NCBI GenBank assembly: GCA_965197585.1
Contig: OZ240215.1
Coordinates: forward strand, 832,001 to 896,000
DNA from: Dehalococcoidia bacterium
GTDB lineage: Bacteria > Chloroflexota > Dehalococcoidia > Plut-88900
Direction of reading: 5' to 3'
DNA length: 64,000 nt
Shown here: positions 19,161 through 59,035 of the stretch, one piece after another
Position numbering within the stretch: position 1 is the first letter of the stretch
Layout: each line of letters starts with the position of its first letter
Notes under the pieces: model-generated
What the model was told of the DNA's origin: nothing
Database searches by the model: none
The model's input: only the letters and a program-made list of their open reading frames with translations
Translations under genes and position numbers: made by a program

Positions 19161-19189
19161 AGTATGCTTTTGGATGGGGCGGTTGTCAA
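19161..19189 (-). promoter_or_regulatory. Sigma70 promoter for the LLM-comDE genes
   Basis: TTGACA-17 nt-CATACT on the minus strand. Confidence 0.6.
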
Positions 19190-19494
19190 TTGGGTGTACT
19201 CGTCAGGTAGGTTAGTGACACACCGGGGTTTTCTTCAGTCCTCCTTAGGCGGATGTTCCATCTTCGATTGTGGGGTGGGGTGGGGTTTTGTCTGTTGGGA
19301 GGGTTGACGATGGAAGACGCTGGTTGGTCGGTTTTGCCCCGTTTTGCTGGCGGATGTTGGGCTGCTCCGAGGCGTGGAAGCCCTGCCACCCCTAATGCTC
19401 GATGATAAACACGGACTTTCCGGGGAGATAGTCCGGCTGTGACCCCGCCTCTGAATGCCCGCAGGCATGATGGGGGCCAGTGATCGGGCAGTAG

Positions 19495-19704
19495 CCCCCT
19501 CAGATATGGTATTTGCGTGGGCCACCCGAGGGTCCAAGCGGCCCAACGGCCCCTTGCTTGATATGGCGTAAGCTCGCAGGCGGGCCAACCTCCGAGAGGG
19601 AGTCTCGGCCGGGGATAGCCGGTCCGCCACCCCTTGCTTGATAAAGCGTAAGCTCGCTGCTAACCGACCACCGAGACGGGTTCTCGGCGGGGAATGGCCG
19701 GTCC
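19495..19704 (-). repeat. Tandem ~80-nt structured modules (two full, one degenerate)
   Basis: 19550-19625 and 19630-19704 share ccccttgcttgata..gcgtaagctcgc...ccgaga...tctcgg...gccggtcc; remnant at 19495-19535. Confidence 0.85.
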
Positions 19705-19923
19705 ACTATGACGCCGTCCAGGCATCTTCCATCGCCTGACTACCAGGGAAAGGGGCACGGGACCCGTGGGGATGAGGAGATGGCGACCTTCGCTTGTACC
19801 GCGGGCCTGCGCGAGGGCCGTTGGGATGGACTGAGGCGTTGAGTCCTCGGGTGGGGCCGGGTGGGCTTCCCTGGGTTTTTGGTTCCTCCTTGAGATAGTT
19901 AGGGTGGTGTTCGAACGGTGAGG

Positions 19924-19953
19924 ATAGTAGCACGGGTGTTCAAGTAGAGTCAA
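19924..19953 (-). promoter_or_regulatory. Sigma70 promoter of element copy A
   Basis: TTGACT-18 nt-TACTAT with TGn extension; equivalent promoter in copy B. Confidence 0.65.
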
Positions 19954-20016
19954 GGGGTTCGTGTCACACTTGGGGAGACACCCCCCAGCCCCACCGGGGA
20001 ACCCTCACCCCCTTTA

Positions 20017-20435
20017 TCCCCCTCTCCCTTAGGGCCATTAAGGGAGAGGGGGAGATAAGAACAGAGGCCCGCACGGGTGCACGGCACCCGTGCGGGCCTC
20101 TAGTTCAATACTGGGGAGAAGGGGATGGACTCCTGATCGGAGTTGGGGATGACGGGAGGGGGGTGGCACGGGCAACGAATTGGCTAAGGTGGGCCACCCC
20201 CCGCTCGACCCTTCGACTTAGCTCAGGATGAGCGGCCCCGCACCGGGGATGGATTCCCGTGTCGGGGTACGAGAATGACGAGAGAGGTGGGGGATGGATT
20301 CACGCCATAGACGCACGTTCCGCCCGATAGGGGTCGGGAATGATGGGAGGGGGTGGAAGGGGGGCAAGGATGGTCGGATAGGCGTCTGTGTTGTGCACGC
20401 AGGCGTTTGAGATCCCTCGCGGGGCCTCGGGATGG
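20017..20435. repeat. Cluster of REP-like palindromes
   Basis: Perfect 15-bp (20017-20053) and 18-bp (20063-20101) hairpins; three GGATGGAYT...ATGA units; CCTTCGAC..AGCTCAGG unit; ATCCCTCGCG..CTCGGGATG unit. Confidence 0.75.
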
Positions 20436-57133: not shown

Positions 57134-57240
57134 CTTGCCACTCTCCTATAGATATGAGGATGAATACCGGACAAGTTTAACATAACGCGATAGTGGATGG
57201 TAAAGTCGAGCCTGGCGGGTGGTCCCGTTCACATAGAGGG

Positions 57241-58101
57241 GTGACATATCCCCCTTGACTTCATAAGACATGTGTTCTATTATTGGGCCAGTCTAGACCC
57301 GACACCCACCTTAAGGAGGTACAAAAAACTAGGGAAGCCCACCCGGCCCCCGAGGACTCAACGTCCAAGCCCATCCCAAAGGGCGGCCCACACGCCGCCC
57401 CACGGCACAAGCAAACGCCGCCATCTCCTCATCCCATCGGGTCCCGTGCCCCTTCCCTGACCACCCAGGCGATGGAAGAAGCCCTGGCTTTCTACTCCCA
57501 CCCCTCCCCCACCATCCCCCAGTCATTCCAGCCTCCAGGCCGGAATCCAGAGGCGGGGTGCGCAGGGAGATTACAACAAGGGTGAAAGGAGATGTACTCG
57601 CGGACCGTAAGACCCCCATAGAGAACCGTCTCGAAGTTCGGACCGCACCGCAAGAGTTAGCGCGCTACGGCGAGGGGGTGCCGGAGGATTTGCTCCGTAT
57701 CGCTCCGGCAAACTGAAAAATCATTAGTCAGGCTGTGGGGCCACAGCTGGATCCCTGGCCCTGACGTGCCCATAGCGGTATACAGCCCCGAAGGAGCCTC
57801 TCACGGACGTCCTGCCCTGGAAGTGTCCGTGAATATAATCGAGCAGAGGGCACGGCCGGCTGCAAGTCCCTCCCTCTCAGGCGGGGCCTGCTCTTAAGGC
57901 CCCCCGACAGCCGGAACACCCGCAAAGAGAGAATGCAAAGCCAGTTAGAGGGCAAGAGGGCGTCTTCCATCGCCGTCCCAAAACCCAACAGACAGAACGG
58001 AAACCCAAACCCCACAATCGAAGATGGAACATCCGCCTCTGGAGGACTGAATAAAAGGCTGGTGTGTCGCTAACCTGCCGAACAAGTACAGCGGATTGAC
58101 C
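57241..58101 (+). ncRNA. Candidate large structured ncRNA or non-coding element, copy B
   Basis: Homologous to 19184-19967 (reverse complement); identical 20-nt and 29-nt blocks; helix 57468-57485 with 57957-57974. Confidence 0.65.
57255..57283 (+). promoter_or_regulatory. Sigma70 promoter of element copy B
   Basis: TTGACT-17 nt-TATTAT. Confidence 0.7.
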
Positions 58102-58198
58102 GGCATTCGGCGGGGAGGCTACACTGGATGGGTGAAGTGAACGGATAGTGAAGCTGACCGGACTACTTATACGATAAGGACGGAGCCCGAGATCAAGG

Positions 58199-59035
58199 AT
58201 GCTTGAAATCAACATGGACCCCCTCCTGATTGGTGGGTTGTCCTGGCACGGGATTTTCACGGCCCTGGGGGTGGCATTTGCGGTATTCGGCACGACGAGG
58301 CTTGCGCGGGACAGGGGCATGGACCCCCAGGTCATCTATTCCTGCGCAGCGTGGGCGGTGCCGGGAGGGGTGGTGGGGGCTCGGCTGGTCCACGTATTTG
58401 ACAACTGGTCCTATTACATAAACGACCCGGTAAAGATATTCACCATCTGGAATGGCGGTGTGGGGCTGTGGGGCGCTTTGCTCGGTGGGACGATTACCGG
58501 CGTCACCTGGGCTATTTTGAACAAGCAGTCCGTGGGCAAAATCGCCGACATTACTGCTCCCATGATGCTGGTCGCTCAGACTATTGGCCGGGTGGGGGAC
58601 GTGATCAATGGAGAACACTTCAGCACCCGGACGAGCCTGCCGTGGGGCTGGGTCCACACCCACGCCAACTGGCCGGGCCTCAATACGGGCCGACCGGCGA
58701 TTCCCGTATCCGAGAGCGGAGCGGAGATAGCATATCACCCCTCCGTTGCCTACGAGATGGTGGGCGACGTACTGCTGTTCTTTGTCATCATGCGGCTCAT
58801 CGGTCGAGTCAAGCCCGACGGTATGGTGATGCTCATCTATCTCGGGACATATGCGGCTATAAGGTTCGCTGTGCAGTTCACTCGGGACGATCCGGGGAGA
58901 ATAGGGTCTTTGCATCAGGCGCATGTAATATCTCTGCTAACGATGGTAGCGGTCTTGGCAGTCGGGGCATTTCTGCTGGTGCGCCAGCGTTCTGAAGGGC
59001 CCCGTGCCCCGAGCCCGCCATTGAAGAGCGCATGA
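58199..59035 (+). CDS. lgt: Prolipoprotein diacylglyceryl transferase
   Basis: GARLVHV, IWNGG, GRVGDVINGE and HPSVAYE motifs. Confidence 0.85.
   Translation: MLEINMDPLLIGGLSWHGIFTALGVAFAVFGTTRLARDRGMDPQVIYSCAAWAVPGGVVGARLVHVFDNWSYYINDPVKIFTIWNGGVGLWGALLGGTITGVTWAILNKQSVGKIADITAPMMLVAQTIGRVGDVINGEHFSTRTSLPWGWVHTHANWPGLNTGRPAIPVSESGAEIAYHPSVAYEMVGDVLLFFVIMRLIGRVKPDGMVMLIYLGTYAAIRFAVQFTRDDPGRIGSLHQAHVISLLTMVAVLAVGAFLLVRQRSEGPRAPSPPLKSA

Follow-up and report, generated by a model that had tools for sequence, protein, structure and literature searches.

Miniature inverted-repeat transposable elements (MITEs) and the Correia elements of Neisseria have terminal inverted repeats (TIRs), a short target duplication and no transposase gene, and they occur as many intergenic copies that often lie near promoters. 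MITEs often arise from insertion sequence (IS) elements by internal deletion, and their usual upper size is ~0.5-0.8 kb. The large structured RNAs GOLLD, ROOL, OLE and HEARO are not known in more than a few copies per genome. The IS110 bridge RNA and the IS200/IS605 omega RNA are structured RNAs used in transposition; like group II intron RNAs, they are found beside or around a recombinase, nuclease or reverse transcriptase gene, in elements that are not known to have TIRs and target-site duplications (TSDs) of the MITE kind. Here we analysed a 64,000-nt stretch of a Dehalococcoidia bacterium genome (contig OZ240215.1, positions 832,001 to 896,000; "the window"), in which two intergenic regions had been singled out as copies of a structured non-coding RNA: copy B (57241-58101, plus strand) and copy A (19184-19967, minus strand). 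Both are members of a repeat family. We consider it probable that this family is a genus-restricted, non-autonomous transposon of ~57 copies, which abuts the -35 boxes of host promoters and carries its own promoter and an untranslated structured RNA.

The family shares with MITEs and Correia elements the TIRs, the short duplication, the absence of a transposase gene, the dispersed copies near promoters and the promoter elements. Unlike them, it is several times larger (copy B, 871 bp long, is at or above the usual upper size of MITEs), comes with a complete near-consensus promoter and a ~0.7-kb RNA whose helices covary, lets its 5-bp duplication abut a -35 box, and has an RNA that outlasts the inverted ends. 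With GOLLD, ROOL, OLE and HEARO it has in common a size of 0.6-0.8 kb, a multi-domain fold and the lack of an open reading frame (ORF); it differs from them by having no Rfam match and ~57 copies per genome, by lying within a transposon and by its restriction to one genus among the genomes searched. Similarly to the elements that encode the bridge and omega RNAs and to group II introns, it is mobile and encodes a structured RNA, but it has no protein gene, no Rfam match to introns or HEARO and no site-specific guide.

Correia elements of Neisseria have been called mobile promoters, and RNA motifs and IS elements are noted among the families of putative mobile promoters in the study that describes them ("Promoter reuse in prokaryotes", PMC3575422). 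Like the families of that study, the repeats described here are homologous, promoter-bearing non-coding DNA upstream of non-homologous genes; here, the vehicle (TIR and TSD) and the RNA cargo are defined, and the element's own promoter stands upstream of the host promoter instead of replacing it. The family fits the definitions of a MITE-like transposon and of a putative mobile promoter, and is set apart from both by its cargo and its target rule. MITE-like repeats are usually seen as short passive DNA, whereas the present family carries a strongly conserved and, as predicted, complete unit from which a folded RNA of 0.7 kb would be transcribed. A strong Shine-Dalgarno (SD) sequence close to the 5' end, from which no protein is initiated, links the element to the STAB-SD described by Agaisse & Lereclus 1996 (as cited in PMC7509114) and to the Bacillus subtilis hbs mRNA, on which initiating ribosomes are reported to block RNase J1 (PMC5737220). 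In comparison with these systems, the element RNA is non-coding throughout and belongs to an uncultured Dehalococcoidia lineage, and its stabilisation is putative.

Copy number and distribution of the family

Copies A and B aligned colinearly, with ~250 nt at the 5' end and ~150 nt at the 3' end strongly conserved and interiors that diverged in the pairwise alignment. Every colinear block listed in the sequence-only reading was found in both copies, including the identical 29-mer CCCCACAATCGAAGATGGAACATCCGCCT; the 3' end proposed there (58096-58101 in copy B, 19189-19184 in copy A) corresponded to the -35 box of the host gene and lies outside the element. The two copies were real, and their number was not two. 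When G000, the genome that contains the window (a single contig of 3.43 Mb, 59% G+C), was searched at the DNA level with the element, dozens of matches emerged, and iterated nhmmer searches detected 57 full-length 5' modules, each beginning at AAGGAGG, together with 49 3' modules. Instead of a discrete two-copy gene comparable to the single-copy GOLLD, ROOL or OLE, the window holds two members of a dispersed repeat of ~57 copies found in one genus. Elements were ~0.6-0.9 kb long; 5' and 3' modules could be paired in 44/57 copies, with a span of 583-800 nt, and both arms of the helix that clamps the interior (GGCGATGGAAG...CTTCCATCGCC) were found in 57/57.

Among the genomes searched, the family is confined to one genus. 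DNA searches found it in 8/8 other genomes of the genus and in 0/3 genomes from other genera of the same taxonomic family. A covariance model built on the 5' domain (R1) matched 6/6 genus genomes scanned, G000 included, and none of 145 genomes that represent 109 further genera in the class. Three other families gave weak DNA matches (E 1e-5 to 4e-4), which the covariance model did not bear out and which were discarded. A pattern scan of public genomes matched only metagenome-assembled genomes of Dehalococcoidia bacterium; a similar scan of metagenomes returned nine stretches, six with the 5' domain (five full-length and one cut at a contig end) and three without it. Plasmid and phage blastn searches gave no match to the element. 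First-look candidate counts, a rough proxy of copy number, were alike across nine genomes. These nine genomes provide more than 400 natural sequence variants, which are usable for studies of large RNA fold and of promoter rewiring by repeats.

One degenerate copy in G000 (C1:3315331-3316291, L191) has a good 3' module and a 5' domain reduced to a 42-bit remnant, and its site in another genome (L066) holds a full element. In other species, the core of the 5' domain (model positions ~43-120) was found tandemly duplicated at L015:2070-2277, L101:1111-1296 and L038:3067-3262.

Inverted ends, target duplications and host promoters

In the 'a' subfamily, similarity between copies begins abruptly at TGATCCCGTTCACATAGAGGGGTGACA, and complete copies terminate in ...TGTCACTAATCTACCGAACGAGTACA. 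The first of these and the reverse complement of the second form an imperfect inverted repeat of ~27 bp with TG...CA termini. Recognisable ends were present on the 5' side in 16/57 G000 copies, on the 3' side in 24/57 and on both sides in 15. The 5-mers flanking the 15 two-ended copies were identical in 8, matched at 4/5 positions in 4 and less well in 3. Identical 5-mers also flanked 7/13 two-ended copies in other genomes, many of which are orthologs of G000 copies; the shuffled control gave 0.5%. The G002 ortholog of copy B (L012) has GCGGA on both flanks. No 5' TIR was found within 400 nt in copy A, the element end of which is at 19195.

To locate insertions, the flanks of 71 copies from other genomes were mapped onto G000: both flanks mapped for 57 copies and were colinear within 7 kb for 44. 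At these colinear loci G000 was filled in 33/44 and empty in 11/44 (a few rows represent one place twice). At L029 the filled site reads ...ATGC(TTTCG)/TGATCTCG...GAGTGCA/(TTTCG)TTGACAG, and the empty site in G000 reads GTGC(TTTCG)TTGACAG, the 5-mer in brackets being present once. L024, L030, L079 and L013 behaved in the same way. These clean empty sites fix the ends of the element. Other intergenic regions were mosaics in which whole repeat blocks had been swapped. Collectively, the data presented here showed that the unit is a non-autonomous, MITE-like DNA transposon with inverted ends and 5-bp target duplications. The sequence-only reading had offered an RNA-based non-autonomous mobile element as a possibility; the unit is mobile and non-autonomous, and its TIRs and 5-bp duplications make it DNA-based.

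The bases that follow the right duplication were strongly biased (n = 24: T in 22, T in 20, G in 20, A in 16 and C in 16), and a -10-like box lies 17-18 nt beyond the TTGAC that adjoins the duplication. Both TTGAC and the -10 box occur in the empty sites too, and the promoter therefore belongs to the host. Our literature searches, none of which was aimed at -35 boxes, found no description of a placement rule against them. The upstream gene was divergent in 36/57 copies (crude ORF map). The 40 downstream proteins had mixed functions, with Lgt, luciferase-like monooxygenase, major facilitator superfamily transporters, amidohydrolases, UvrA and proteins of the leucyl-tRNA synthetase and Glu/Gln-tRNA-synthetase types among them. 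As a raw count, Amidohydro_2 (PF04909) was present in 7 of these 40 (loci L207-L246).

This arrangement bears on the idea that the element is a mobile cis-regulatory leader, akin to a riboswitch or T-box, in which relief of termination in the tail would allow read-through and place dozens of genes under one signal. In its favour, 43/57 copies are co-directional with the next gene, which is usually ~50-200 nt away (on the crude ORF map), a scan of the 3' ends of copies A and B revealed no intrinsic terminator in the sense orientation, and the motif upstream of the element's promoter is common to the groES promoter. However, the layout of a riboswitch or T-box was not found: a separate host promoter stands between the RNA and the downstream gene, in empty sites too. 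In addition, 14/57 copies face away from the next gene, and the downstream genes have mixed functions. We regard such a leader as improbable. Another proposal is a mobile RNA-based control or insulation cassette, inserted at dozens of host promoters at a fixed site 5 bp upstream of the -35 box and now retained by the host in all its copies, which would bring ~40 unrelated genes under one signal and whose integration would read TTGAC or the bound RNA polymerase or sigma factor. This seems unlikely to us; if true, it would be a bacterial counterpart of the promoter-directed integration of eukaryotic retrotransposons. If the RNA were inert, the family would still be a clean case of promoter-proximal transposon targeting.

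The source of the transposase was sought in G000. Besides the elements themselves, a scan for the TIR motif detected just one interrupted copy and a solo groES end, with no extra TIR pairs, and no Tn3-family transposase was found in this genome. The nearest ends in G000 were those of a ~1.09-kb IS with an rve transposase (TGTAAGTGTTAGGTAA), which matched the right end of the element at 11/16 positions by eye; this IS also makes a 5-bp duplication, but at other targets than the element. A 423-aa rve IS inside copy c04 was rejected as the partner, as its ends differ from those of the element and it invaded the copy separately.

The element could also be purely selfish, its RNA acting as a cofactor or regulator of the transposase, as an aid to promoter-proximal targeting or as a limiter of damage to the host. 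TIRs, TSDs and presence/absence polymorphism are what such an element would show, and other mobile elements encode structured transposition RNAs; moreover, the asymmetric fixed site beside TTGAC is hard to explain by a symmetric transposase complex alone. Yet copies with one interior type sit at different, unrelated targets, which led us to reject a site-specific guide RNA, the RNA is kept in copies without ends, and a cognate transposase gene was not found in G000. Taken together, we hold a purely selfish element to be rather unlikely.

A predicted untranslated RNA unit and its fold

A promoter, defined as a -35 box with at most one mismatch to TTGACN, a spacer of 16-18 nt and TAnnnT, was found ahead of 57/57 G000 copies and 74/74 copies from other genomes, and its sequence predicts a near-consensus promoter of the sigma-70 type. 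It is usually preceded by a GTGACA motif (54/57 and 67/74 copies, respectively). AAGGAGG is invariant in 131/131 copies (57 from G000 and 74 others), lies 27-46 nt downstream of the -10 box, behind a predicted leader of ~30 nt, and is perfectly complementary to the 16S tail GGATCACCTCCTTTCT (3' end ...CACCTCCTTTCT). As had been proposed, no ATG, GTG or TTG occurs in the ~15 nt that follow it in copies A and B, and across the family it likewise lacks a start codon. The element thus has the sequence layout of a STAB-SD: an SD complementary to 16S rRNA, near the 5' end predicted from the promoter, with no start codon.

The conservation of the unit was also confirmed to be non-coding. Indels between copies do not come in threes, all three sense frames hold stops in 51/57 copies, and 5'-domain lengths modulo 3 (43/27/26) indicated no three-nucleotide periodicity. 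Pfam searches of 10 ORFs from copies A and B detected no domain above threshold; a sub-threshold match to a viral glycoprotein (E 0.06, one of the 10 ORFs) was taken as chance. The sense strand is rich in C (37.5%) and poor in T (14.8%). The absence of a known RNA family held as well: Rfam gave no match at the gathering threshold in the whole window and none in copy B even at E<=10, and the only matches near copy A were sub-threshold, miRNA-like and located on the hairpin upstream. A promoter followed by a perfect SD resembles a gene start, and the frequent descent of MITEs from IS elements is compatible with a decayed protein-coding gene or a transposase remnant whose apparent structure is an artefact of relatedness. 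This explanation is largely refuted by the stops, the lack of periodicity and the Pfam result, by compensatory changes far above slid and shuffled controls, and by an RNA body more conserved than synonymous sites (both described below); we consider it very improbable.

The fold of the ~150-nt 5' domain was read by hand from alignments and single-sequence folds. P1 pairs CAGGGAAG with CTTCCCTG and alternates with GGGGGAA/TTCCCCC. P2 is made of two short helices flanking a CC/CC internal loop, as in CAC-CC-GACCC/GGGTC-CC-GTG or AGCC-CC-GGCC/GGCC-CC-GGCT. P3 (GAGGA/UCCUC) is invariant, P4 is a hairpin of free sequence and P5 pairs GGC with GCC. The two helices reported earlier were recovered in both copies, AGGGAAG/CTTCCCT being P1 and the second being the clamp (Table 1). 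The clamp has a nearly invariant 11-bp core and an inner extension that alternates between ACGC:GCGT, GTCC:GGAC and GCCC:GGGC; cognate arms paired at -9.5 kcal/mol, versus -6.8 for non-cognate arms.

Covariation was measured on a model-made alignment of 102 matches to the 5' domain, 98 of them distinct (A3). In this alignment 92.5% of cells could pair, versus 44-56% when the partner strand was slid. Changes on both sides were seen in 17/29 pairs (4-7 in slid controls), with 116 compensatory cells (13-23 in slid controls), and 0/500 shuffles reached the observed values. Helices P1, P2 and P4 and the clamp extension covary, so that the covariation sought as a check on the structure was found above both kinds of control. 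The argument that G-U pairs single out the sense strand held in the clamp (G-U 37 versus A-C 7, 130 copies) and failed in the 5' domain.

The rest of the unit is less uniform. The interior measures 151-531 nt (median 386) and falls into ~12 sequence types. In type I, 5/79 predicted pairs had changes on both sides, and the type I alignment (A4) indicated the gain and loss of whole hairpin modules, some of them similar to the GTCATTCC...GGAATC hairpins of G000, which resemble repetitive extragenic palindromes (REP). Towards the 3' end comes a C/A-rich single-stranded tail and, after it, up to three (at least one) GGAACAUCCGCC..GGAGGAC hairpins, a type that is also an optional insert in the 5' domain.

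Orthologs of copy B provided a comparison with neighbouring genes. The copy-B locus is filled in G005 (aligned region 95% identical), G002 (92%) and G006 (flanks 73-77%). Between G000 and G006, the leader and SD were identical at 28/28 positions and the 3' clamp arm at all positions (Table 1); the 5' domain was 80% and the interior 78% identical. Third codon positions of the flanking lgt and xerD-like genes were 49-55% identical, and the TIR-containing ends 56-61%. Across G000, the promoter, SD, 5' domain and clamp were intact in 57/57 copies, although most inverted ends have decayed. Because the RNA is kept where the inverted ends have decayed, and because its body lies above third-position identity, these sequence comparisons suggest that purifying selection acts on the RNA unit rather than on mobility.

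The same observations could be explained by a host-domesticated, trans-acting structured RNA, for which the transposon would be a former vehicle and the many copies a means to a high dose; it might, for instance, serve as a scaffold, titrate a protein or 30S subunits, or be built into a ribonucleoprotein. The RNA has long invariant single-stranded motifs (GAGGACUCAAC, CCCAUCCCAA, GCCAUCUCCUC) between covarying helices and several GGAGGA motifs complementary to the anti-SD; its body is conserved above synonymous sites, it is retained while the inverted ends decay, and candidate counts, as a rough proxy, are alike in nine genomes. On the other hand, ~57 redundant copies should mean weak selection on each, yet none is broken; the interior varies between ~12 sequence types and acquires REP-like hairpins; the RNA lacks a known partner protein; and a purely trans role leaves the position and orientation at host promoters unexplained. 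We regard this as possible, at well under even chances.

We return to the non-autonomous transposon that carries its own RNA unit next to host promoters. A DDE transposase supplied in trans would once have spread the element to promoter-proximal sites, where its own promoter may produce an abundant RNA. 30S subunits bound to the 5' AAGGAGG could shield this RNA from 5' exonuclease in the manner of a STAB-SD, by analogy with the systems described above, and the untranslated C-rich tail may load Rho, so that the transcript would end before the host promoter. As to the benefit, a local action in cis on the neighbouring host promoter appears the likeliest of three candidates, at somewhat better than one chance in three, because all copies have stayed intact next to host promoters; a trans-acting RNA or ribonucleoprotein ranks second, a little below that, and a role in the element's own propagation ranks third, at about one chance in four.

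The conserved promoters suggest that the elements are transcribed. In agreement with this, contigs from three RNA-library runs of two studies, labelled metatranscriptomic, lie on the element body (57332-58087), with DNA carry-over being possible. The RNA runs did not cover the promoter and leader (57224-57331) or lgt (58088-58500), both of which were covered by DNA run X1; given that these are contigs with loose ends, absent cover is no proof, and depths cannot rank expression.

Several results weigh against the transposon-borne RNA unit as formulated here. An autonomous partner with matching ends was not found in G000, and the TIR/TSD architecture is established for a minority of copies, the 15 two-ended ones. 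The alignment A3 was fitted to a given structure and leans towards it. On a plain MAFFT alignment, RNAalifold gave a weak consensus that recovered part of the structure, because the variable hairpin P4 was misaligned. Predicted stability was no better than that of shuffles (minimum free energy z = -1.34 sense, -0.35 antisense), and the 5' domain shows no preference for the sense strand in its numbers of G-U and A-C pairs (71 versus 88). The selection test covers one orthologous locus, where gene conversion among paralogs could mimic constraint. Contigs of RNA runs may hold DNA and cannot give ends, strand or level. The mixed functions of the 40 downstream proteins led us to reject a shared regulon. 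Finally, STAB-SD-like protection, Rho termination and the cis effect are steps that we infer.

Feature coordinates and neighbouring repeats

Table 1 Features of copies B and A and of the adjoining host promoters, in window coordinates.
Feature	Position	Strand	Remarks
Copy B, whole element	57220-58090	+	871 bp, TIR to TIR
Copy B, left target-site duplication GCGGG	57215-57219	+	4/5 match to GCGGA at 58091-58095
Copy B, 5' terminal inverted repeat TGGTCCCGTTCACATAGAGGGGTGACA	57220-57246	+	Unrelated sequence upstream in 'a' subfamily
Copy B, predicted element promoter TTGACT-17-TATTAT	57255-57283	+	Promoter scan, 10/12
Copy B, AAGGAGG	57313-57319	+	Perfect complement of 16S 3' end, no start codon after
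Copy B, 5' domain, helices P1-P5, invariant loops GAGGACUCAAC, CCCAUCCCAA, GCCAUCUCCUC	57320-57467	+	Model R1
Copy B, clamp 5' arm GGCGATGGAAGA	57468-57479	+	Pairs with 57963-57974
Copy B, variable interior, sequence type I (12 G000 copies)	57480-57962	+	Clustering
Copy B, clamp 3' arm TCTTCCATCGCC	57963-57974	+	12/12 identical in G006 ortholog
Copy B, C/A-rich, G/U-poor tail	57975-58025	+	Conserved in 3'-module alignment
Copy B, GGAACAUCCGCCUCUGGAGGAC hairpin motif	58026-58047	+	1-3 per element; optional insert in 5' domain too
Copy B, 3' terminal inverted repeat ...TGTCGCTAACCTGCCGAACAAGTACA	58065-58090	+	
Copy B, right target-site duplication GCGGA	58091-58095	+	
Host promoter of lgt, TTGACC-18-TACACT, not part of element	58096-58125	+	Promoter scan; downstream ORF is Pfam LGT
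Copy A, GTGACAC motif and predicted element promoter TTGACT-18-TACTAT	19924-19967	-	
Copy A, AAGGAGG	19885-19891	-	
Copy A, 5' domain	19737-19884	-	R1 score 184.3 bits (locus L125)
Copy A, clamp arms (19736-19725 and 19317-19306, one G-U) around type VII interior	19306-19736	-	
Copy A, 3' terminal inverted repeat TGTCACTAACCTACCTGACGAGTACA	19195-19220	-	
CCCAA at the expected place of the duplication, then host promoter TTGACA-17-CATACT and luciferase-like monooxygenase gene	19161-19194	-	
19-bp terminator-like hairpin with T-rich tail	20062-20102	-	In ~200-nt repeat block upstream of 'b'-subfamily copies

A second, unrelated IS of the same genus occupies the equivalent position in the promoters of the elements themselves, immediately ahead of their -35 TTGAC. 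This ~1.3-kb IS encodes the 423-aa rve transposase (PF00665) and was found at the same spot in element-type promoters in 12/12 full copies examined, where GTGACACGAA-CCCC precedes it and CCCC-TTGACC follows it. The loci are G000 C1:659335-660660 (L188), L193 and L195-L203 in G005, and L194 in G001. G005 has 10 full copies, with 99% protein identity to the G000 copy, and a further broken one; G000 and G001 each contain a single copy.

The ~1.09-kb IS encodes a 329-aa rve transposase, has the ends TGTAAGTGTTAGGTAA...TTACCTGACATCCACA and is present at 19 places in G000 (e.g., C1:1679022-1680114), none of them in the window. Its copies are mostly 96-100% identical to the reference copy (90% in one case). 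With two or three exceptions, they have entered, in either orientation, the REP-like hairpin GTCATTCC...GGAATC with an ATTCC duplication, and several lie within 1 kb of RNA elements.

The groES promoter (G000 C1:3404960-3405110, L189) is preceded by a solo element 5' end, TGATCCCGTTCACATAGAGGGGTGACATCACCCCCTTG, with similarity ending inside the -35 box; an inverted repeat resembling CIRCE, the controlling inverted repeat of chaperone expression (TTAGCACTC-N9-GAGTGCTAA), follows this solo end. Other repeat families cluster beside the elements, as at 19968-20250 (minus strand) in the window and upstream of many 'b' and 'c' copies. They comprise the terminator-like hairpin (Table 1), a CCCCCTCTCCC...GGGAGAGGGGG hairpin, GTCATTCC...GGAATCC hairpins and a long palindrome, GACATATCAGCCATGTTGC...GCAACATGGCTGATATGTC.

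The GC skew of G000 is very strong and patchy, ranging from -0.2 to +0.2 in 25-kb windows, and the cumulative skew has its minimum near 2.6 Mb and its maximum near 1.05 Mb. The C-rich sense strand of the elements tends to coincide with the locally C-rich strand (Fisher p = 0.0035).

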